Virus record (IMG/VR): IMGVR_UViG_3300038345_000118
Location: 1-64,000 of that record
DNA length: 64,000 nucleotides
Source: a virus
Taxonomy: Duplodnaviria; Caudoviricetes
Direction: 5' to 3' (one strand)
Of the stretch, positions 11,701-52,052 are shown piece after piece. The first letter of the stretch is position 1. Every line of letters starts with the position of its first letter. The notes below the pieces were generated by a model, which saw only the letters and a list, made by a program, of their open reading frames with translations, was not told the DNA's origin and ran no database searches. Both the position numbers and the translations under genes were made by a program.

Positions 11701-11754
11701 CTTCACGACTTTCTGATACGCTGCTTTATTATGCGGTAATAATTGTGTTCTCAT
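8746..11754 (-). CDS. Superfamily II DEAD/DEAH helicase with about 10 C-terminal helicase-associated-like repeats
   Basis: HPTGTGKS, LDEFHR, TATP, NEGVHIP and QQIGR motifs; repeated F...(N/H)GRLP units. Confidence 0.85.
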   Translation of the reverse strand: MRTQLLPHNKAAYQKVVKAFEAADRTCVVHPTGTGKSYLMAAVSESYKNVLILGPNTFVLNQVHSVLEWRDRQKDGKVEYMTYSLLMFTENPQTNYDLICLDEFHRAGAPEWGDAVDRLLKVNPQAKVLGTTATPIRFLDDNRDMADELFGGNIASYMSLKDAWDRNILATPRFVTGLFEFDKVVDDIERRISKSRSLDIKEKKERLTRVNNLRLDWERSQGMPAIIQKHIDEKARRVIVFCGNVEHLKDMEKTVKSWFVSAGFTIADIYTVHGYMADKELKEQMDGYENDDYEEGIKIMLSVNMLNEGVHIPRINAVILLRTTSSKIIYLQQIGRCLTAANTDKPVILDMVDNITTTNLVHQIRDGYDWYEHQHMKDEKESEYEPLGFVVYDYTLGIKDAIRKLVPQEIVYASYEERVSIVTDFCEKNGRTPVRGDGLDVFRHYHVLIQCYGDRPEVIALRAKYGVVKDFETRLKRFVEFTDKYGRLPVKVTEPDDYRNYVALCTQHMRNPDKRFQDLLDRYRTRLRDTDDELLKRFLDFVEKNGRLPRNNRFAPKSENKLRRHVTNRLLGNPQVAELFEKYEKKKIPFFERLERLKEFVEKNGRLPIKSEESDYNNFCQLRVVDKRRHDKELKEIIYKYGTVKDDESLKRTILDFYNEHGRLPMKNRSNEEAALYKRMRERKSIHEDPDIARLLETRKKFLTADEGIVKLQEYVREHNSKPHRNEHTMYNLWNRIMRENMDDPRVKEMHEKYDKHEFNMKEYIAPLAEYIRENKCLPTDNSVRNLYAILYNIRKNYPEHPDVKPLLEEIASWPSYGEKMRASHDDEVKRLIIGFVDKNGRLPEKKTDEMYLYKQWRARRDRLCEDPVMQAIRDRYENRPLKFEQRYALVRDWSLEHDRLPNRKDGDIYQKYETLRRSYLNTPEVRALHRKYAAQTNKRSINMEFRLDQIEAFADSHNRLPSTAHSDEMQLGRWWVNIKRRYGTYQRVTALKERFPIQNRM

Positions 11755-12683
11755 TTGCTATTTTTTTTAGCTTCACGCACCGCATCGTTACGCATCTCTG
11801 TCAGTTCCCTGACGGCTTTCTTCGCAAAACCCTTAGTGGCAAATATCTCATCAGAGTAGTCATAAACTGCCTTGATGGTGGCATCGAAAGGCAGATCCGT
11901 TGACGTCCACAGTTCCTCCAGCTGTTCCACACCGAGCGCGACGTTGCGTTCTTCGGCTTCGTCGAGACTATAGGCATCCGTCTCAGGAGCCAGTGCGACG
12001 AGAGCCCGCTGCCATGCGGCAGAGATGCGTTCAAGTGAAAACGGAGCGTAGATCTGCAAGACTTGGCTCTCTGAAAGCAGTCCTTCGCATGCCTCATGTA
12101 CGATGCACATCGTCCGCTCAAAGATATTGACGGCAAGTTTCAGGACGGTCTCACCCACCAATCCCCACGCCACAAGGTCGGCGCATGGCACGCCGTGAGC
12201 CTGCATCGACAGGCGGAACTTGTTCCACAACGAGCCAATAAGCGGCTGGCTCTTCTGATAGACCAGCGCCCCCGTAGCCTCCCAGAACTCAAAATACTGC
12301 GCATCGGTCACGACACCGTATTTCCGTCGGGCTTCTGCCGGCATGTCCTGAAACCTGAAAAACTTAACGATGCCAGGCGCAGGTTGAATCAGGTTCGTGC
12401 GATAACGCTTATATTCGTCGAGCGCACGGGCAAAGTCGCGCTTTACCTGATGCTTGTATTTAGGGTGTGGAGAGCATGGGCGTGCCATATACTCGTCCTT
12501 TGGCCTCACGTCGGCAATCTTGTTCAGGCTGTCCATCATCACGACGAGTGCTGCATTGTTGGCGGCACCGGTTATCATCTTAACAAAACCGGCGCACTGC
12601 GCCATAAGCAGTTCTATCTCCTCAATGGTCATGCCCTTCGGATTACGGGCAAGGGCGAGATAATTTATGTTTTTTGGTGTCAT
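11751..12683 (-). CDS. Hypothetical protein
   Basis: 310-aa ORF whose stop overlaps the helicase start. Confidence 0.65.
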   Translation of the reverse strand: MTPKNINYLALARNPKGMTIEEIELLMAQCAGFVKMITGAANNAALVVMMDSLNKIADVRPKDEYMARPCSPHPKYKHQVKRDFARALDEYKRYRTNLIQPAPGIVKFFRFQDMPAEARRKYGVVTDAQYFEFWEATGALVYQKSQPLIGSLWNKFRLSMQAHGVPCADLVAWGLVGETVLKLAVNIFERTMCIVHEACEGLLSESQVLQIYAPFSLERISAAWQRALVALAPETDAYSLDEAEERNVALGVEQLEELWTSTDLPFDATIKAVYDYSDEIFATKGFAKKAVRELTEMRNDAVREAKKNSK

Positions 12684-12699
12684 AATCTATTTATTTTTG

Positions 12700-12785
12700 C
12701 CCAGGAGGCCGAAATCGAATCGGCGCTCAGTGGAATGTTACATCCCGTTGCTCCTGTGGGTCTCACTTACGGGCTTTCTCCTGGG
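12700..12785 (-). ncRNA. tRNA-like structured element (acceptor-like stem plus T-arm)
   Basis: CCCAGGAG/CTCCTGGG 8-bp stem stacked on GCCGA-TTCGATT-TCGGC; no canonical D or anticodon arm. Confidence 0.4.
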
Positions 12786-12859: not shown

Positions 12860-13306
12860 TTATTGCTTATTCAGTTGTCCCTGTAGCTTAGCGATTGTCT
12901 CGCTATAAGCAGCGACTTGCTTCTGGTGTTCATCGACAAGCTGTTGACGGGACAGTTTCAGCTGTGAGAGCTGTTCATCCTTTTCTTTCAGCCGCTGGCG
13001 AAGATTCTCCACGAGTGTCTGATAGCCAGTCACCTGTTTGTCGATTTCAGCCTTCTGTTCCTTAAACTTCCAGTACATATCTTCGAGTTGGGCGACCTTC
13101 TCAGTCGTTTTCTCGTACTCCTCCCGTACCCGGTCAAGTTCCATCTGGTACGGATTGTTGCCAAACAAGGCAATAAATAAGTTTTTGAAATAACGCTTCA
13201 TTGTTTTGTCTTTTATGGATTTTTCCACCATTTTTGGAAGGGACTTTTCAAAAATTGTTGTAACTTTGTTGCAAAGATACAATAATTTCGGAAATCGACA
13301 AAACAA
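12860..13306 (-). CDS. Coiled-coil hypothetical protein (likely start at MKRYF near 13201)
   Basis: Heptad-rich C-terminus; first gene of the leftward operon. Confidence 0.6.
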   Translation of the reverse strand: MFCRFPKLLYLCNKVTTIFEKSLPKMVEKSIKDKTMKRYFKNLFIALFGNNPYQMELDRVREEYEKTTEKVAQLEDMYWKFKEQKAEIDKQVTGYQTLVENLRQRLKEKDEQLSQLKLSRQQLVDEHQKQVAAYSETIAKLQGQLNKQ

Positions 13307-34924: not shown

Positions 34925-35104
34925 TTAAAAATCAAATGCTGTTTCGATAAATTTCTCTAAGCGGTCTTTCCGCCATTTGCAACCAAGATCACGGGCGAAG
35001 GCAAATAGTATGCGCTTCACTTGCGCCTCCGTATAGGTACGAGCGTCCCGCAGTTCCTGAACTTTAGGACGCATTTGTAGAATCATTGCTTTTGTTTCTG
35101 CCAT
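34925..35104 (-). CDS. Small hypothetical protein (59 aa)
   Basis: Manual translation MAETKAMILQMRPKVQELRDARTYTEAQVKRILFAFARDLGCKWRKDRLEKFIETAFDF. Confidence 0.5.
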   Translation of the reverse strand: MAETKAMILQMRPKVQELRDARTYTEAQVKRILFAFARDLGCKWRKDRLEKFIETAFDF

Positions 35105-35124
35105 AGGAATATGGTTTTATAGAT

Positions 35125-35361
35125 TTAACATGGATAACACCCCATAGCCAGAGGCCAACCTTCAGGACCATAGCCCCCATAGCAATAGAGCTGTTCCCAT
35201 ACTTCATAGGTACTTTTGTAATAATCACCACCACGCTGCTGCTTAGAATAAAGCGTAGGGATAGGCATACCATGTGCCATACAATAGTCGCTCACGGCCT
35301 TTGGCTCGCGAACTTCAAAATAGACTTCTGATTTCTTTGTTGTCATAATTTTGTCCTCCAT
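35125..35361 (-). CDS. Small hypothetical protein
   Basis: ORF directly downstream of the structured non-coding region. Confidence 0.5.
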   Translation of the reverse strand: MEDKIMTTKKSEVYFEVREPKAVSDYCMAHGMPIPTLYSKQQRGGDYYKSTYEVWEQLYCYGGYGPEGWPLAMGCYPC

Positions 35362-35375
35362 ATTTTAGTGAATAA

Positions 35376-36409
35376 TAGTAGAAGAGGGCGGACTCGAACC
35401 GCCTGATGCCCACGTGGGGCGTCCAGCCCTGACTCTCTCGGCTATCGTATGCGTGTGCTGCGTCGGCCACGCCTGACACCTGGTGTCCTGCGTTTGGATT
35501 CGTTGCCCATAGGCCATATTGTCAGCTCACGCAAATAGCGGGAAAAGTCGTTTACACTCTCCTCCTCCGTTTTATCTTCAAAATCTCGGATACACTTTAC
35601 TTTAATCTGTCCCCCTCGTTTGTGTCCGACCCGAAACAGGCCGTTAGATAACACGCTCATGCCGCTTGAAAACCGGCTGCACATGAAACGAGTACAGCAC
35701 ACTCACTGGCCACTCGCGCTCTACCCACCCAGGGGGCCTGGCGCTCATAGCCCTTCGTGCGAAGGACAAGATATTGAAGTTCGTCGCGGTTTTTTCTTCC
35801 TGAGCCCCGCCCCTATGTGTGCATAGGTATTGTCCGCCGCTTGCAAAGTTTTATGCGGATAGGATAGAACCCCACCCGGCGAGACTCACTTTCGGACCCG
35901 GCTGCATCGTCCGCCTCGTGAGCGCCTATAAAAACGCCTTCGACTTCCTGCTCTCGCCTTCCTTGGATAGTCTTTAATTATAACCCTTCTGCCTTCTCGC
36001 CTGGGGCGGTTTTGCTTGAGTTCGTCACCTCCTTGCAACCTACCCCCTGCGCCCTCCACCGGGAGGGCATAGACAGTTCGTTATCTCGTGCGCCGAAACG
36101 CCTACCTAACTATCCGGTCCCAGATCGCTAACTATCCCGGGGCCTTGCGGCCTGCCTTTAGCTCTCTGCCCCTTTGCATTTAAGAGAGTGGGGGTACACC
36201 CGAGGTTTTCCGGCTATCCTTCTGCCTGCCTTTGCTTTTACTCCCTGGCCTTGGGAGGATCTTTTGCTCCCCCTTGCCCTGAAAACCGGGCTTTATAGTG
36301 GAGGATCCGGGGGCCTTGAAAACCGGGCCGATCCGGGCAAAATGTTTTTTAGTGGGGGCAGGGGGTATCGATCCCCCTTGCGCTCCTTGCGCCCCCTGGC
36401 CTTGCGGCC
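35376..36409 (-). ncRNA. Candidate large (~1 kb) structured non-coding RNA bracketed by tRNA-like minihelices
   Basis: No convincing ORF; many hairpins (GGCC-GCAA-GGCC twice, GCCCTCC-CGGT-GGAGGGC, CCTATG-CACA-CATAGG); T-arm plus acceptor-like stem ending ACTA at both ends. Confidence 0.55.
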
Positions 36410-36410
36410 G

Positions 36411-37070
36411 TTATGCTGCAAACAATAGGGCGGCGGCCTCTGCCTCTGTTATTGTGCCGGCCTCCACTTGTTTTTTAAGATCCTGGGCTTTCTTTGCAAA
36501 CTCCTTGGCCTTGTCTGCATAGGCCTTGCGCTCCTGACTCTTGGCCTTGCGCTCTGCCTTGCGCTCTGCCTTGCGCTCTGCCTTCTCTTTTGCCTTGCGC
36601 TCCTTGTCTTGCTCCTTGTCGATAGCTGCGGCGTATTTTTCAACAAGCCCCAGACGGGCGGCGGCAGCATCTATAACGGAGTTATCACTCCAACAACTTG
36701 CAAGCGTACCAATATAATATGTACCTGCAAAGTGGATCAAAACGTGATCGGCGTCAGGTGTAAAACTTGGATCAAGATAGAAAGCCGTAGTATCAGTTAC
36801 GGCAACAAGAGACGTAACCGGGCGGCCGTTAAAAGCATATATAGAACTCCACCAAAAACCGGCGCCGTCAACGAAGGCCGCATTTAAACGGGAATAAAGA
36901 TCTTTAATGTTTTCGTTACTGTAACCTTCTACGCCCTTGGCCTCCTTGTCTCTGCCCTGGGCTACCTTATTCAGGTGCCGGAAAATGTAACCGGGGTTAC
37001 TGTTGATCACCTTGTTTTCATTCTTTGCACCCTTTTTAACCTGGGCAGTGGTTTTTACTTGCTTATTCAT
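36411..37070 (-). CDS. First gene of the train; hypothetical protein with basic KAER-repeat helix, C-terminal AA
   Basis: 219-aa ORF downstream of a TAACTTTG promoter. Confidence 0.7.
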   Translation of the reverse strand: MNKQVKTTAQVKKGAKNENKVINSNPGYIFRHLNKVAQGRDKEAKGVEGYSNENIKDLYSRLNAAFVDGAGFWWSSIYAFNGRPVTSLVAVTDTTAFYLDPSFTPDADHVLIHFAGTYYIGTLASCWSDNSVIDAAAARLGLVEKYAAAIDKEQDKERKAKEKAERKAERKAERKAKSQERKAYADKAKEFAKKAQDLKKQVEAGTITEAEAAALLFAA

Positions 37071-37117: not shown

Positions 37118-37184
37118 CAAAGTTATATCTTTTTCGTTTTACTCGCAAGCATTTTCTTAATTATTTTATCTTTTTCGTTTTACT
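37118..37184 (-). promoter_or_regulatory. Promoter of the train with a duplicated 18-bp operator-like repeat
   Basis: TAACTTTG -7 element at 37118-37125; TATCTTTTTCGTTTTACT at 37126-37143 and 37167-37184. Confidence 0.6.
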
Positions 37185-37358
37185 TTTTCCGATTTCTTGA
37201 CAAAATATACAAAAGTATCTTTATTTTGTAATCTCAGAGTTTGCAAAATGATACCTTAACCACTATATTCCTACCTGAAAACCGCAAACAAAGGCCAACA
37301 CTATTTGACTTTAATAATGTACGCGCGAGAACTGGTGTTGCCTGGTGTTCACGCTCCA

Positions 37359-37499
37359 TCACCACCCACACCACCAGAAGCACACCACCAGAAGCACACC
37401 ACCACCACACCACCCACACCACACCACCACACCACACCACCACACCACACCACACCACACCACCACACCACCACCCACACCACCACCACACCACACCAA
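37359..37499. repeat. C(1-3)A low-complexity repeat tract (TGG/TG on minus)
   Basis: About 140 nt of CCA/CA/CCCA units, interrupted only by two GAAG insertions. Confidence 0.9.
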
Positions 37500-37634
37500 A
37501 GCATATTTACAGCCGCCGCCGGACGCCCACACCCACCCCACCGATACAATGTGGCGCGGGGTGATCTCTGCGTAAGAAAAAAAAATGAAAAAAAAGTGGG
37601 AGGTTGGAAACGATTATAAAAGGGATGGAGCAAT

Positions 37635-37677
37635 AAACAACTGCGGACTTCATCAAAAAAGAAGTCCGCAGTTGTTT
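37635..37677. terminator. Strong hairpin, likely terminator of the 37854-38378 gene
   Basis: 17-bp perfect inverted repeat AAACAACTGCGGACTTC/GAAGTCCGCAGTTGTTT. Confidence 0.65.
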
Positions 37678-37853
37678 CCTTTTAATTAACTATAATAAAT
37701 TAAATAGTGGTATTTATGTTAATCTAAGGTTTTATTTTAACACTCTATACCTTTTATATTTAACAATTCAATTTTAAATATTGAATGATTCTCTTTATTC
37801 TATTTTTAGAATAGAAAGTATAAAAAGGAAAAATGTTTTTACATAATTAATAT

Positions 37854-38378
37854 TTATTGTTCGTCAACTCCATCTTCTGCCACCACCTCATAACTGGAGA
37901 GCACCCCGGCGACGGCCAGCAGTTCAGCGTTGATACGGTCAACATCTTCACGTGTGATGTTACCATAGACGGGTGACTTAATAATAGACAAAGTTGTGCG
38001 ACATTTGGTAATATTCCATCCCAGCAGTCTATTCAGCAGACCACGCAGTTTGAAATATTTATTCATTCCATTCTTAATCTGATCCACCACTGTAGGGTCG
38101 TAGGTTGTTCCTCGCTGATTAGTAAAAGTCTGATTACTTCCAAATGTCAGCAGGCATCCGCGTAATTCGTTGGCAACCAGTCCTAAAGTATCATTCAGAC
38201 GCTGAATGTTCGATGCAGAAAACTTCTGCGGCTTTCCATGACGATTAGGCGTATGTAGGAAACAAGCACGTACAACACTATCACTTATCCCCATCATACC
38301 ACCAATCGATGAAATTATGAAATTATGCTCAGTGAGATAGTCGTAAAGAAAGTCCTGTGACACCTTTATCTTTTCCAT
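37854..38378 (-). CDS. Hypothetical protein, possible N-terminal HTH regulator
   Basis: ISSIGGMMGISDSVVRACF is HTH-like; has its own promoter at 38434-38441. Confidence 0.55.
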   Translation of the reverse strand: MEKIKVSQDFLYDYLTEHNFIISSIGGMMGISDSVVRACFLHTPNRHGKPQKFSASNIQRLNDTLGLVANELRGCLLTFGSNQTFTNQRGTTYDPTVVDQIKNGMNKYFKLRGLLNRLLGWNITKCRTTLSIIKSPVYGNITREDVDRINAELLAVAGVLSSYEVVAEDGVDEQ

Positions 38379-38509
38379 TAGTATATATATTTTTAAATGA
38401 GATTGTTGTAGCCTTTATTTATATTTTCGCCTACAAAGTTATATCTTTTTTATTTTACCACAAAATCATTTAAATCTTTTTAAGAAAATAGTTTTTCTTA
38501 CCTTATTAT

Positions 38510-38547
38510 AAAGAAAACAACCCGTCGGTTTTTAGTCCGACGGGTTG
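38510..38547 (-). terminator. Intrinsic terminator (or IS-end-like hairpin) downstream of tnpB
   Basis: 11-bp perfect stem CAACCCGTCGG/CCGACGGGTTG followed by TTTTCTTT on minus. Confidence 0.6.
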
Positions 38548-38548
38548 G

Positions 38549-38604
38549 CTCGTCGCGTAGCAGAGAACTGAGATTACCCCGTGCCTCGGAGGCATGAAGG
38601 ATTT
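38549..38604 (-). ncRNA. Putative IS200/IS605 right end / omegaRNA 3' scaffold and 20-nt guide
   Basis: AAATCCTTCATGCC-TCCGA-GGCACGGGGTAATCTCA resembles IS605/IS1341 right ends; followed by GTTCTCTGCTACGCGACGAG. Confidence 0.5.
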
Positions 38605-38608
38605 ATGG

Positions 38609-40006
38609 TTACGAGCGTGTGCCTACCTTCTTCCCGTTATCAATTTCCCTATACCTTATATTGTTCCTTATCAGGTCGGAACGCATAGGGCTGACTTCGG
38701 GCATTGAACCGGTATTGCCTATCCCGGTTAAATTTCTTAGATTGATAGCAGCATTCAAGTCACGATCAATTACGTTGCCACATTCAGGGCAGCGATAAAT
38801 TCGCTGATTAAATGTCATGCGTTGTTCGACATGTCCACACTGACAACACCGACGAGTGCTTGGAAAATTAATTGGGGCCTTTATAATTTTTCTACCAAGC
38901 AGTTCGCCGAGAGTCTCCAGCCGATGACGTATCTCATAGAGTCCTACATCCGCAAGGTGGGCATTCAGTTTCTTTTTGCCTTCCTTTCGTTCTACGGATT
39001 TTGCCATCTTTTTGATGGATAGCGTCTCAATGGAAATATACTGATAGTTAGCAAGGATTACCCCACAAAGACGATTACGTAAATCCTCACGCCTATTGCG
39101 TATGCGTGTGCGAAGCCTCCATAACTGTTGTTTCAACCGCAAAAAATTCTTTCCAGGTCTGTTGCCAGATTTCTTCTGCTTCGCACAACTGCAATGATTC
39201 ATACGCTCCTGCAGTTTGTTCTCATGTATCAGTTGCCGCTCCCAGAAACGGAGGTTCTCTATCATCAAGCCATCAGAGGTGACGGCCAGTTCTTTTATCC
39301 CGAGGTCTATGCCAATGGCAGCGGTGGGCGACTGGGCATATCGAGGATGAACACGTATAAATTCTTCTTCAGTGATCTCAACGAGAAAACAAGCGTAGAA
39401 ACGCTCGTTCTTTTGACGGATGGTAACGCTGACAGGTCTGCCTTCATAGCGAAGTGGCCGAGTCATTCGGACACAGCCGAGTTTTGGTAACAACAGGTAA
39501 GGCCGTTTATGGCAGGGCTTGCTACTGGGATCGTCTGCATAAGTCGGTACAAGAGACCCATCACGGCGCTTGTGCATTTTCATTTTCACGCGGTGGTCGA
39601 GAATCTTTGCACCGCCCTCATTATTCGTTGGGAAGTATTCAGTGTAACTTCCATGATTGTATGACTTATTCTTGGGTTTTGGAAATCCGCTCACCTCGTC
39701 GTTACCACCTTGTTTGATTTTTTCATGGCCTTTAAAGAAATTATCAAAGGCTCTTTGAAGGTCGTCAAAAGCATAGCAGGTGGCAGCGGACGAGATTCGT
39801 TTGAGGAACGGCCATTGTCCTGCTTTCTTCTCTTTATTAAACTGAGTGCGTATGTCACGGCAGTTTGTCCTCTGTCCGCTATCACGCAGACGTATCCACT
39901 CGCACAAGCCGTAGTTGTAGGCCAGCCGATGAGCGCCGAAGCACTGGCGGAAGTAAGTTTTCTGCTTATTGTTGGGTCGTATCTCTATGGTCTGTCGTAC
40001 AAACAT
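38609..40006 (-). mobile_element. tnpB: TnpB RNA-guided endonuclease (IS200/IS605 family), no tnpA nearby
   Basis: N-terminal HTH (IEIRPNNKQK...RLAYNYGL), RuvC-I IGIDLG, RuvC-II ISIETL, CCQC/CPEC zinc finger, RuvC-III DRDLNAAINL. Confidence 0.92.
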
Positions 40007-40559: not shown

Positions 40560-40584
40560 ACGCTATGAATTTTGACAAACAAAA

Positions 40585-40659
40585 ACTGCACTACGGGCTG
40601 TCAAGGTTCATAGCGGTGAGACCTTTGGGGCTGTTATCCAGTACCCCACCCGGTGCAGT
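40585..40659 (-). ncRNA. C4/CI-like antisense RNA (75 nt)
   Basis: ACTGCAC/GTGCAGT closing stem and two internal hairpins, with CCGCTATGAA in a loop and TTGACA at a stem end and bulge, complementary to flanking sites at 40561-40577 and 40743-40762. Confidence 0.75.
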
Positions 40660-40765
40660 CGTATTTTTTGAGGATAATCCTCGTTCATTTTCGGGCACAA
40701 AAAATGCCGCTTGTTCGGCGGCTCTTTTTCTTCTTCGTGCCACCGCTATGAATTTTTTGACATGG

Positions 40766-48368: not shown

Positions 48369-49394
48369 CTATTTCTTATCGTTTCCAAAGAGTTCCATTC
48401 CGCTGTCTGTCGGCTGCTGCACTACGGGTTCAGGCTCTACGGATAGCGTTTTATAAGTTGTCTTGTTTTGCCGGTTCCGTTGTTCTATTGCCTTCTGAGT
48501 TTCAAGAAGGCCCTGCTTGATGTTACGCCCAAGATCGGTGAGGTGTATATGAAAGGCTATAGACTCCGGCGTGCCGCGTTTCTTTCCCGGCGGGTATATA
48601 AACTCGTATTCGAATGTACAGTCGATGCGGTCGGCGGCTTCGAGGATTTCCCGTCGAGCCGGTTCCAGCACACGCTTCTTGAAGTCGTTGATGTCACGGT
48701 ATTTGTCAACGGTAGCCTTCTTAGTCTCCTTGTCGTAAGTCGTCAGGAGTATCTTCCGTAATTTCTCGTAGCTGATGACCCATGTGCCGAGTTGCTTGTT
48801 AGCGTTGATGAGCAGGTAAATACGTCCGGCATAGTTGCTGGAGAAGAGGAAGATAGCATCTTTCAGGTAGCGATGGTAAGGCGTAATGCGGAATAGGTCC
48901 TTGGCCGTCGTCTCCGTCATGTGCAAATAGATATTCTGGCGACGCTTTCCCGGCACGTCCTTGTCTATATCGACGACTGGAAACGCCACGGTGTATCTCA
49001 TTTTCCCCTCCACCTCCTTTTCATAGACGATGGACTGCATGGACTTAGCCGCCGTATCCACGTCGTTGTAGTGCTGCGGTTCTATGCCAAGCTCAGAATA
49101 AGCCACCTTGAAGGTAAGATAGCGTGAGCGGTCATCGGGCGAGATAGGCTTGTAGTCTTCGCTGTCAAAAAGGTCTCCGATAAGTCCCTCCTTTGACTTT
49201 CTTTCGAGCGCCTTCTTGATTTTACCCTGCAGCTTCTCCATGATGGTAGTCTGGATGCGTGTCTGCATCATCGACATTTCACCGTTTAGATAAGTGAATG
49301 TGATGGGCTGCGTGATCATCTTTCGCTGTTCAGCGGGAACGCTGCTGATAATTTCCTGCTTCAGCTGTTCAGCCTTACGTGACTTTCTTGCCAT
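48369..49394 (-). CDS. Plasmid replication initiator (Rep_3 / RepA-like), probable start MARKS at 49394
   Basis: FSSNYAGRIYLLI...ISYEKLRKIL...YRDINDFKKRVLEPARREI is Rep_3-like; adjacent to an iteron array. Confidence 0.8.
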   Translation of the reverse strand: MARKSRKAEQLKQEIISSVPAEQRKMITQPITFTYLNGEMSMMQTRIQTTIMEKLQGKIKKALERKSKEGLIGDLFDSEDYKPISPDDRSRYLTFKVAYSELGIEPQHYNDVDTAAKSMQSIVYEKEVEGKMRYTVAFPVVDIDKDVPGKRRQNIYLHMTETTAKDLFRITPYHRYLKDAIFLFSSNYAGRIYLLINANKQLGTWVISYEKLRKILLTTYDKETKKATVDKYRDINDFKKRVLEPARREILEAADRIDCTFEYEFIYPPGKKRGTPESIAFHIHLTDLGRNIKQGLLETQKAIEQRNRQNKTTYKTLSVEPEPVVQQPTDSGMELFGNDKK

Positions 49395-49560
49395 AATGTG
49401 TATCTTTAAAATATTACCATTGACATGGGACCGTTGTAGCCAAATCCCTGCATTCGGTGGCAAAGTTACAAATTTGTCCGAGAAGTTCCAAGCGTTTTCC
49501 CCTTTATTTTCTGATGTTTAGAAAACCTTTAACTTTTGTTAGTATTTTAAAAATCGGTAA

Positions 49561-50993: not shown

Positions 50994-51153
50994 TTATTGA
51001 ATTATTGTTATATTGCTATATTGCTTTATCGAATTATTGCAATAACGTTATATTGTAATATTGTTGTATCGTGATATCGTTATAACGTAATAATGTAATA
51101 TCGAAATATTGTAATATAGTTATACTGCAATATTGTATTATTGCAATAATGTT
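50994..51153. repeat. parS-like array 2: twenty contiguous 8-bp units (consensus WTATTGYW)
   Basis: Unbroken 8-bp register from 50994 to 51153 between parA and its partner gene. Confidence 0.85.
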
Positions 51154-52052
51154 TTAGTGCGCTTAATGATTTCATTGGCGAGAAGTGTGAACTCTTCGCG
51201 TGGTATGTCGGCGCGTGGGGTGGAGTAGACGCTTGTGAACTCGCGCTGGCTTTTGCTGACGGCTTCGCGTTCTGAGATGCTGACAGGCAGTATTTCCTTG
51301 CCGTAACGTGATTTGAGTTGTTCTTCTGCCTCGCGCTGTCCTTTGATATATGCCTTACGCCGGGTTATCAGGAATCCGAGGTTAGTCAGTTCATCGTTTT
51401 CACTCTCGCGTATTTCCTGGATGTATGCCAGGTAGTTCTGCAGTCCGTTGAGTGCGAATCCTTCGAGGTTGATGGGAATCAGCACGGCATTGACGGCGAT
51501 CAGGATGTTGTCGATAAGGACTTGCGGTCCGACGGGCGAGTCAATCAGGATGAAGTCGAAATCCGTCATCCAGTCGGTGATGCCTTCGCCGGTATGATCA
51601 TCCGGTGCTTTCTGCAAGGCCCGGGTTAGTTTCATGGCCGGGTTGCGCATGGTGGGAAGCTGCTGGTCCACCTTGTTCATAATCGAGGTGGACGGGCAGT
51701 AGTAGAGTCCCGACTCGCTCCGGTAGACGGGGATGGGTGCATCCTCACACAGTACGTGGTAGATGGTGGGGTAGTGCTGCAGTTCGAGGTCTGGGTTCCA
51801 GTCGGTACAGCTGGAGAGGTTAGCTTGCCGGTCCATGTCGATGACCATGACGCGGTAGCCTTGCAAGTGCAGGGCCATTGCCAGATTGAGTGTGGTCGTG
51901 GTTTTACCCACGCCACCTTTGTAGTTGCCGATGCCGATGACGGCACGCAGCTGTGTCTTGCGTTTTTTTACCATAATGTTGTAGCTTTTATTTGAAATTG
52001 TATTTGCTCCTATATCAGGATGTTGTAGCGAATCCTTGGAGGAACGGTGCAA
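51138..52052 (-). CDS. parA: ParA-family partition ATPase (likely start MVKKR near 51974)
   Basis: Deviant Walker A NYKGGVGKTTT, VMVIDMDRQANL, FDFILIDSP, VLIPI. Confidence 0.93.
   Translation of the reverse strand: MHRSSKDSLQHPDIGANTISNKSYNIMVKKRKTQLRAVIGIGNYKGGVGKTTTTLNLAMALHLQGYRVMVIDMDRQANLSSCTDWNPDLELQHYPTIYHVLCEDAPIPVYRSESGLYYCPSTSIMNKVDQQLPTMRNPAMKLTRALQKAPDDHTGEGITDWMTDFDFILIDSPVGPQVLIDNILIAVNAVLIPINLEGFALNGLQNYLAYIQEIRESENDELTNLGFLITRRKAYIKGQREAEEQLKSRYGKEILPVSISEREAVSKSQREFTSVYSTPRADIPREEFTLLANEIIKRTKTLLQ

Follow-up and report, generated by a model that had tools for sequence, protein, structure and literature searches.

A conserved kilobase-long non-coding RNA framed by two tRNA-like elements in a phage-plasmid of Bacteroidales

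Introduction

Large non-coding RNAs of bacteria and phages are rare (ribosomal RNA, RNase P, group I and group II introns, OLE, GOLLD, ROOL and raiA) and each of them opened new biology or revealed a new architecture. Here, we describe an RNA of this size class on a stretch of DNA of 64,000 nucleotides (hereafter the window), corresponding to positions 1 to 64,000 of the 86-kb IMG/VR virus record IMGVR_UViG_3300038345_000118 (Duplodnaviria; Caudoviricetes). About 1 kb located right behind the gene of a 219-aa protein is a conserved and folded non-coding RNA, not a protein gene, and carries a tRNA-like element at each end. A previous reading of the letters of this DNA (hereafter the sequence-only reading) had proposed a large structured non-coding RNA encoded by the minus strand of a phage, and this proposal is now backed by conservation and covariation in relatives. 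Beyond that reading, the analysis brings in the linkage to the upstream gene, a cloverleaf-like 3' domain and the position of the RNA as the probable second unit of a promoter-driven operon. All coordinates follow the numbering of the window, and the RNA strand is the minus strand, i.e. the gene-sense strand.

The closest described RNAs in kind are GOLLD (RF01998) and ROOL (RF03087). Like the RNA described here, they are very large multi-domain covarying non-coding RNAs borne by phages or prophages, and their function is unknown. However, GOLLD and ROOL often adjoin tRNA genes, whereas non-decoding tRNA mimics are built into both ends of the present RNA, which is ~1 kb long, belongs to elements of probable Bacteroidales hosts and lies inside a putative operon right after a conserved protein gene. 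The resemblance to GOLLD and ROOL drawn in the sequence-only reading therefore holds in kind (large, ornate, phage-borne, with tRNA-like elements) but extends neither to homology nor to a match with their models. The tRNA-like domain of transfer-messenger RNA (tmRNA) shares with the RNA an acceptor stem stacked on a T-arm and the lack of an anticodon, and its discriminator A, G2-C71 and G3-U70 have candidate matches in the 3' element of two lineages (L024 and, if read in the homologous register, type A); however, the acceptor of this 3' element closes only the last 75-195 nt and not the whole RNA. The 3' tRNA-like structures of the plant viruses TYMV and BMV are likewise tRNA mimics at the 3' end of a long RNA. 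These are pseudoknot-based structures of RNA virus genomes for which charging was demonstrated, whereas the present one is a cloverleaf-like junction predicted in a transcript of a DNA phage. YrlA, a bacterial Y RNA that works with Ro60, is also a non-coding RNA with a tRNA-like module encoded beside a protein gene, but it is only ~100-150 nt long and is present in Rfam (no match here), and the neighbouring protein in our case has no Ro60 (TROVE) Pfam match.

Furthermore, RNase P and RNase Z cut the long mammalian transcripts MALAT1 and MEN-beta at a 3' tRNA mimic (mascRNA). By analogy, the logic proposed below would be the same as for mascRNA and for mitochondrial tRNA punctuation, in which cutting at a mimic defines the ends of a long RNA. 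These are eukaryotic or organellar systems, and we know of no catalogued counterpart in a phage operon. Frpo single-stranded DNA (ssDNA) promoters are also folded non-coding regions located upstream of anti-defence genes on mobile elements, but they are ~300 nt long, consist of one long hairpin and act as DNA, whereas the present region is ~1 kb long with many helices, RNA-type loops and tRNA mimicry (PMC11541004). A large screen of phage structured RNAs yielded motifs of at most 151 nt (PMC10690425). No description of the RNA reported here was found in the literature.

Conservation and non-coding nature of the RNA

The gene-free stretch extends on the minus strand over ~1 kb between the end of the 219-aa open reading frame (ORF; 36411) and the ATG of the next gene (35346). 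Fourteen homologues of the 219-aa protein (51-93% identity) were found in metagenome assemblies and 12 cluster representatives of greater divergence came from a profile search. In every sufficiently long contig, the homologous gene is followed by 0.77-1.16 kb without genes. The linkage of the RNA to this upstream protein gene is thus strict, and this unbroken linkage suggests that the protein and the RNA form a pair. One more contig (L012, from JGI) was added by one exact-pattern scan. No match was obtained by blastn against the phage database, scans of IMG/VR with the protein, a protein alignment and two DNA patterns returned no relatives, and PLSDB plasmids contain no homologue of the 219-aa protein. 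Seven contig matches to GGCCCGGTTTTCAAGGCCC, 19-28 nt long and from unrelated phyla, were dismissed as chance matches.

The gaps of L002, L012, L004, L005 and L011, aligned to the window, were designated type A, and those of L007, L009 and L010 type B. Type A gaps share 78-81% identity with the window across ~1.05 kb, whereas the adjoining protein gene shares only 67-70% nucleotide identity. This better conservation of the gap argues that the RNA sequence is under purifying selection. Type B resembles the window over its initial ~250 nt, in the central core and in the 3' T-arm, and also has the third CGGUUUUCAA hairpin, but diverges between these parts. A covariance model of the 5' module (the 5' tRNA-like element and two CGGUUUUCA hairpins) was built from types A and B only. 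It matched more distant relatives over its full length, with 41.5 bits in L024, 41.5 bits in L025 and 35.5 bits in L026 (E = 6e-10 to 3e-8), reached 52.3 bits in L029 (E = 6e-15), gave 12.9 bits in L020, where the module is cut by the contig end, and found a single copy in the whole 86-kb genome. L021 has nearly no sequence similarity but keeps the order of the parts and a CGGUUUUCAG hairpin. On these matches, the distant lineages and types A and B are assigned to one RNA family.

The absence of a credible ORF noted in the sequence-only reading is upheld. Each of the six frames of the RNA locus contains 10-17 stops; since every frame carries all three types of stop codons, a simple reassignment of stop codons opens no frame, and recoding was rejected. 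No 3-base periodicity of substitutions was detected anywhere among type A sequences. A 127-aa ORF is called in two type B contigs, but a frameshift interrupts it in L010, and the substitutions in it fall 6/6/7 on the three codon positions.

Folding of the RNA

The fold was computed with RNAalifold on nine sequences. It comprises 180 pairs, 60 of which show double changes that keep pairing. In a control count, 96.8% of the cells were canonical and 50 pairs had clean compensatory changes. Only 2-5 such pairs were counted when the 3' partners were displaced by 1-3 columns, and within-column shuffles gave 8.6 on average (15 at most). Covariation expected of a structured RNA is hence found well above controls, and the motif pattern lies far beyond chance, as conservation and covariation in relatives extend over the entire kilobase. 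Being longer than 500 nt and non-coding, with compensatory helices and conserved loops and junctions, the RNA belongs to the large ornate structured non-coding RNAs, a descriptive class that does not imply homology.

Several domains stand out, at the two ends and between them (Table 1). In the three-way domain, hairpins H1 and H2 each present a loop CGGUUUUCA(A/G). Its closing helix (36337-36342 with 36262-36267) has compensatory changes in 5 of 6 pairs within type A and in all six in the nine-sequence set, the stem of H2 covaries (GCCC/GGGC versus CUCC/GGAG), and the module was found by the 5'-module covariance model (R1) in three further lineages. The GCAA loop of the GNRA hairpin is invariant across type A, the version of L029 being GGGC-GCAA-GCCC. 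The central core contains the hairpin GCCCUCC-CGGU-GGAGGGC, i.e. the 7-bp perfect stem that had been noticed at 36051-36068, together with a nested set of helices, and several compensatory pairs fall in its alignment columns 463-546. Downstream of it, a long-range helix of 12 bp joins 35768-35779 to 35576-35587 and encloses the third CGGUUUUCAA hairpin (35658-35685), which is kept in type B and, according to blastn, in the distant L021.

Other motifs listed in the sequence-only reading were also located. The motif CCGGTTTTCA indeed occurs three times (35665-35676, 36278-36289 and 36315-36326), GAAAACC lies at 36204-36210 and the direct repeat GGATAGTTAG at 36106-36115 and 36128-36137. Both copies of GGCC-GCAA-GGCC exist (36141-36152 and 36398-36409), but the latter is private to this genome. 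Pairing of the GGUUUUC loops with the conserved GAAAACC was dropped because the lengths of the U-runs and A-runs do not covary among relatives. A pairing between the two T-arms, proposed by alifold from type A alone with eight non-canonical cells, was rejected as an artefact of the similarity of the T-arms.

The structure can be assigned to a strand. The alifold energy is -175.8 kcal/mol for the sense strand versus -162.4 kcal/mol for the antisense strand, with covariation terms of 20.7 versus 15.7. Eighty-six pairs are common to the predictions for the two strands; in these, the ratio of G-U to A-C cells is 16:1. Moreover, the T-loops (UUCGAGU and AUCGAUA) and the invariant GCAA tetraloop read correctly on the gene-sense strand only.

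Table 1. Coordinates of the RNA, its domains and other features of the window
Feature	Position	Strand	Remarks
RNA locus	35376-36396	minus	~1,020 nt
5' tRNA-like minihelix (TLS1)	36350-36396	minus	acceptor GGGGGCG/UGCCCCC, linker, T-arm GGGGG-AUCGAUA-CCCCC, then ACUA
Three-way domain	36262-36342	minus	closing helix UUUUGC/GCAAAA around hairpins H1 (36307-36336) and H2 (36276-36291)
Helix CAGAGAGCUAA/UUAGCGAUCUG around GNRA hairpin GGCC-GCAA-GGCC (36141-36152)	36121-36168	minus	four compensatory pairs
Central core, the most conserved part, common to types A and B	35988-36072	minus	near-invariant 85-nt block
Domain under long-range 12-bp helix CUUCAAUAUCUU/GAGAUUUUGAAG	35576-35779	minus	five compensatory pairs in closing helix
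3' tRNA-like four-way junction (TLS2)	35376-35568	minus	minimum free energy folds and homologous compact cloverleaves
219-aa protein gene, preceding the RNA	36411-37070	minus	no Pfam or PHROG match
Bacteroidota-type promoter, -7 box TAACTTTG	37118-37125	minus	55 nt before ATG of the 219-aa gene
First downstream gene, 73 aa from ATG 35346	35125-35346	minus	preceded by conserved AUUCACUAAA and GGAGGA, ~30 nt after TLS2
Third tRNA-like element	12700-12785	minus	between ORFs 12860-13306 and 11751-12683
Fourth CGGTTTTCAGG copy	37274-37284	minus	between TG tract and promoter
TG1-3 simple-repeat tract	37360-37520	minus	~290 nt upstream of the 219-aa gene
Strong terminator hairpin	37636-37676		upstream of the promoter
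AT-rich block	37680-37850
Solo TnpB gene	38609-40006	minus	OrfB_IS605 and Cas12f-like TNB domains
c4-2 antisense RNA (RF02944)	40582-40660	minus	45.7 bits
Rep3-type initiator gene	48369-49463
ParA gene	51138-52052

The two tRNA-like ends

The 5' element (TLS1) consists of a 7-bp acceptor stem, an invariant 12-nt linker CAAGGAGCGCAA, a T-stem of 5 bp capped by a 7-nt loop and the returning 3' strand of the acceptor, and lacks an anticodon loop. It starts 14 nt past the stop codon of the 219-aa gene in the window, and the same design is found 6-15 nt past the stop codon of the upstream gene in six lineages. Seven variants of its acceptor occur across the lineages (GGGGGCG/UGCCCCC, AGGGGCG/UGCCCCU, AGGGGUG/UACCCCU, AGGCGUG/CACGCCU, GGGCAGG/CCUGCCU, AGGUGGG/CCCACCU and GGGUAU/AUACCC); all are complementary and each is trailed by ACAA or ACUA. 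As a background, the pattern of acceptor, T-arm and AC occurs at five sites in the 172 kb formed by both strands of this genome, i.e. ~0.03 per kb and strand.

Both the 5' minihelix and, at 35376-35403, the T-arm followed by CTCTTCT-ACTA had been spotted in the sequence-only reading and lie where it had placed them. Its picture of two bracketing minihelices holds insofar as there are tRNA mimics at both ends, but the 3' element (TLS2) closes a four-way junction of ~195 nt. Its acceptor pairs AGGAGAG (35557-35563) with CUCUUCU (35380-35386) and encloses a long arm of ~125 nt, an arm of ~30 nt and the T-arm GGCGG-UUCGAGU-CCGCC (35387-35403), the trailer ACUA occupying 35376-35379. Minimum free energy (MFE) folds of the last 193-197 nt of the window, L002 and L004 give the same four-way junction, in which the ~125-nt arm replaces a short one. 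Whereas TLS2 is thus expanded in the window (~195 nt), it is compact in L024 and L021 (~73 nt), where an acceptor and a T-arm are joined by two further arms, one of 6 bp that carries the loop AUCACGGACA and one of 5-6 bp that carries a tetraloop. The compact form of L024 folds at -30.8 kcal/mol (z = -4.1), and its acceptor and both arms differ from those of L021 by compensatory changes. In the alignment, AGGAGUG of L024 (its 5' acceptor strand, within GACGGAGGAGGAGUG) corresponds to AGGAGAG of the window (within GACGGAGGAGGAGAGUG). TLS2 has no anticodon loop, its arm 2 being capped by a tetraloop.

Neither element is a tRNA or a tmRNA according to the usual tools. ARAGORN with default settings found no tRNA or tmRNA in the window, L002, L004, L007, L012 and L021; when relaxed to thresholds of 80% and 60%, it gave only noise, with peptides that were inconsistent among homologues. 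Using Rfam 15 at gathering thresholds on the whole window, nothing was found in the RNA region, the sole match being c4-2. At E <= 10, two T-arm/acceptor pieces of the RNA region match tmRNA models locally, with 18.9, 14.8 and 11.2 bits versus gathering thresholds of 47-84; the 18.9 bits come from the permuted tmRNA model at TLS1, and L024 obtains 14.6 bits spanning model positions 1-374. The tmRNA scores (RF00023/RF04321) of 18.9, 14.6 and 13.3 bits hence stay below the gathering threshold of 47, and no tag reading frame with a resume codon was found, the compact TLS2 of L024 and L021 leaving no room for it. For tRNA (RF00005), there was no match in the region at E = 10 and no cloverleaf with a 7-nt anticodon loop, whereas a genuine tRNA-Met of L024 used as a control scores 52 bits. 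GOLLD and ROOL models gave nothing at gathering thresholds in the window, at E = 10 in 35000-36800 or at E = 5 in four relatives. Since no Rfam family reaches its threshold, the RNA appears to be new.

Two other loci bear on tRNA-like elements. A third such element, lying between two other ORFs, has an 8-bp acceptor CCCAGGAG/CUCCUGGG that closes directly on a T-arm, GCCGA-UUCGAUU-UCGGC. Its MFE is -32.3 kcal/mol (z = -2.6) and it has no Rfam or ARAGORN match. It is a hint that tRNA-like punctuation may be used more than once in this genome. The tRNA-Met of L024 (1003-1077), the sole genuine tRNA gene seen on a related element, lies 4 kb upstream of the protein-RNA pair, beside a sugar epimerase gene, a setting that points to integration of this relative in or close to a chromosome. 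CCA is not encoded in this tRNA, and its acceptor is followed by A-CUUA, which resembles the trailers of the mimics.

Genomic context, proposed production and role

The record is that of a tailed phage, as it encodes a head maturation protease and a tape measure protein of 2,324 aa. The same record also contains a plasmid replicon with a Rep3-type initiator and ParA, and all 39 plasmid relatives of the Rep protein come from Bacteroidales or other Bacteroidota. Judged from these genes, we are dealing with a tailed phage-plasmid of Bacteroidales. Its RNA is part of a long train of minus-strand genes that begins just upstream of the 219-aa gene; downstream of the RNA, this train includes anti-restriction genes (for ArdC and a DarB-like protein of 1,628 aa) and the gene of a protein with a MutS-I domain. 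PcfJ and ArdA genes are found downstream in relatives.

The 219-aa protein is basic (isoelectric point 9.3) and comprises an N-terminal alpha/beta domain, an ER/K-rich single helix of ~75 residues (according to AlphaFold) and a C-terminus ending in AA. Across lineages, its size ranges from 197 to 237 aa. The AF2 model has a pLDDT (predicted local distance difference test) of 78; searches with Foldseek against the PDB, VIA-align wide and the ESM Atlas returned long-helix matches only and assigned no fold to the N-terminal domain. A C-terminal alanine is present in 13 of the 13 aligned members of this family (..FAA, ..LAA, ..MVA).

Upstream of this gene, the -7 box probably marks where transcription of the operon, RNA included, begins. 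A TAnnTTTG box is found at -55/-57 in the window, L002, L004, L005 and L009, and a strong terminator hairpin lies upstream of the promoter. No promoter or terminator motif of note was found inside the gap. Ten sigma-70-type hexamers occur over 3.2 kb, two of them inside the RNA, which was judged no commoner than a loose expectation of 4.5 +/- 2.1; promoters of Bacteroidota differ from the scanned pattern. As to an Frpo-type promoter, in which a single hairpin of ~300 nt would rebuild -35 and -10 boxes in folded ssDNA, no hairpin of this length was seen among the inverted repeats or in the fold of the region. Since the RNA has no promoter of its own, it is expected to be part of the operon transcript. 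On the downstream side, the ORF caller starts the next gene at 35361 (78 aa), whereas the calls in L004 and L005 give 73 aa, which makes ATG 35346 the most likely start. The GGAGGA located before this ATG is unusual for Bacteroidota, in which the use of Shine-Dalgarno sequences is rare.

Whereas conservation, covariation, the tRNA-like architecture and the linkage to the protein gene are seen in the data, we infer co-transcription, processing, a protein partner and a role in infection. A transcript initiated at the Bacteroidota-type promoter would carry the 219-aa gene, the RNA as second unit and then small genes and anti-restriction genes. Host tRNA-processing enzymes would most likely cut this polycistronic transcript at the two non-decoding mimics, RNase P acting 5' of each acceptor stem and RNase Z after the discriminator A. 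An acceptor stacked on a T-arm is a recognition feature of RNase P, and a discriminator followed by a non-CCA trailer is a cut site of RNase Z; cutting by RNase Z would thus be feasible because the trailer AC[A/U]A is non-CCA. TLS1 of every lineage has these substrate features, as does TLS2 of types A, C and F, so that RNase P and RNase Z could plausibly excise the RNA at the mimics. Excision would release a stable RNA of ~1 kb with a tRNA-like 3' domain, separated from the flanking mRNAs. The mRNA of the first gene would be left with a very short 3' end and the downstream genes would gain a leader of ~30 nt with GGAGGA. Once mature, the RNA would probably work in trans while the phage-plasmid becomes established, and the protein encoded right upstream may be its partner in a ribonucleoprotein. 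Since the operon holds anti-restriction genes, a role in establishment or counter-defence is no more than a reasonable guess.

Taken jointly, we consider it rather probable that this RNA represents a previously uncatalogued class of ~0.85-1.15 kb, borne by phage-plasmids and related mobile elements of Bacteroidales, and that it is produced from an operon transcript by such processing. The design would be a new one: two tRNA mimics that do not decode enclose a core of ~1 kb, and the whole is tied to a place behind a single protein gene, close to the start of an operon with anti-restriction genes in phage-plasmids of gut or rumen-type Bacteroidales. It makes testable the idea that tRNA punctuation carves long non-coding RNAs from operon transcripts of bacteria or phages. 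Moreover, cryo-EM studies of naturally folded RNAs gain a new target, and the RNA is a candidate participant in the establishment of the phage or in its counter-defence.

Alternative explanations

Several points weigh against an RNA excised at both ends and acting in trans with its neighbour. Independent sequences are few (about six lineages, nine sequences in the main alignment), alifold picks structures partly by covariation and the total-energy strand test favours the sense strand only modestly. Type B (L007, L009 and L010) keeps the 3' T-loop hairpin but shows no convincing acceptor closure; no partner was found for its 3' acceptor strand besides the 5' T-arm itself, so that the 3' tRNA-like junction is not universal. 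In addition, the link between protein and RNA rests on gene order alone, the fold of the protein giving no clue to RNA binding. The most serious competitor, although we hold it to be unlikely, is a cis-acting device, i.e. a giant structured intercistronic spacer of the operon mRNA that would set the processing, stability or translation of the flanking cistrons, for instance by providing a short 3' end to the first gene, a new GGAGGA 5' end downstream or read-through of the ~20-kb operon by RNA polymerase. It would fit with a gap devoid of internal promoter motif or terminator, with a TLS1 that begins inside the footprint of the ribosome terminating on the upstream gene (6-15 nt past the stop), and with the conserved AUUCACUAAA-GGAGGA leader directly after TLS2; the element at 12700-12785, also located between genes, suggests that punctuation could be a general device. 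However, known processing or antitermination signals need far less than a kilobase with ~180 conserved pairs, helices of long range and an 85-nt core that hardly varies; this core is also better conserved than the flanking genes.

A different possibility concerns the 3' domain of the excised RNA. G2-C71, G3-U70 and the discriminator A73 form the identity set of alanyl-tRNA synthetase, and they are present in TLS2 of L024 and, in the homologous register, of type A; the only weak Rfam matches (14.6 bits in L024 and 18.9 bits at TLS1) are to tmRNA models. TLS2 might hence be a functional mimic that gains CCA and either receives alanine or serves as a ligand of translation or tRNA-surveillance factors, as in tmRNA and plant viral ends, while the RNA is bound to the ER/K-helix protein. 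If so, a phage ribonucleoprotein would use tRNA mimicry to seize or blunt a host system early after entry, and it would parallel, in bacteria and on an entirely new scaffold, both tmRNA and the tRNA-like 3' ends of viral RNAs. But L021 has G3-C70 and G2-U71, type B lacks both the alanine set and the acceptor closure, the (GGA)n run of type A permits an alternative register without G3-U70, and there is neither a tag frame nor a consistent ARAGORN tmRNA, with Rfam scores far under the gathering threshold (47 bits). We therefore take the alanine set as a lead rather than a finding, and consider the charging of the RNA or its engagement of the host tRNA and translation machinery improbable. Still less credible is a structure acting as DNA, such as an ssDNA promoter, a priming site or a lytic origin that would fold once the strand is single-stranded, comparable to what precedes anti-defence genes in leading regions of conjugative plasmids; the sequence-only reading had offered an ssDNA promoter or single-strand origin as its alternative. 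The RNA does lie ahead of ArdC, ArdA and DarB-like genes, the cumulative GC skew has its minimum at 38-39 kb beside an AT-rich block and the TG1-3 tract, and about half of the predicted helices are hairpins that can form on either strand. However, the T-loop and GNRA sequences and the G-U bias fit a sense-strand RNA, long-range helices span up to 260 nt, and this tailed phage has its own Rep3/ParA replicon elsewhere (48-52 kb). Furthermore, we know of no role in DNA for a tRNA-like acceptor/T-arm geometry with an AC[A/U]A trailer. Finally, short ORFs of 50-127 aa that can be called in some copies would be expected of a decayed protein gene or functionless selfish repeat, but covariation, conservation above that of the neighbouring gene, the lack of codon periodicity, the frameshift in L010 and the presence of one copy per genome leave this explanation with next to no credibility.

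Other features of the element

The region upstream of the 219-aa gene contains the TG1-3 tract, and nearly all relatives' contigs end 240-266 nt upstream of the gene, within simple repeats of their own that vary from one relative to another (TG-rich, AGAGTGA and CCCTGATGCTGCCCCC units). This repeat tract looks like a hypervariable locus that breaks assemblies. The fourth copy of CGGTTTTCAGG, found in this region outside the RNA, is absent in relatives; in the 86 kb, CGGTTTTCAGG is confined to this locus. The cumulative GC skew has its minimum at 38000-39000 and its sign changes near 38-39 kb, with genes on the minus strand on both sides. The AT-rich block and a terminator with a 16-bp perfect hairpin adjoin this switch, which may be a lytic origin or a module boundary. 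The solo TnpB gene lies in a low-GC insert. The c4-2 antisense RNA precedes a 152-aa ORF, in a layout similar to that of P1 immunity.

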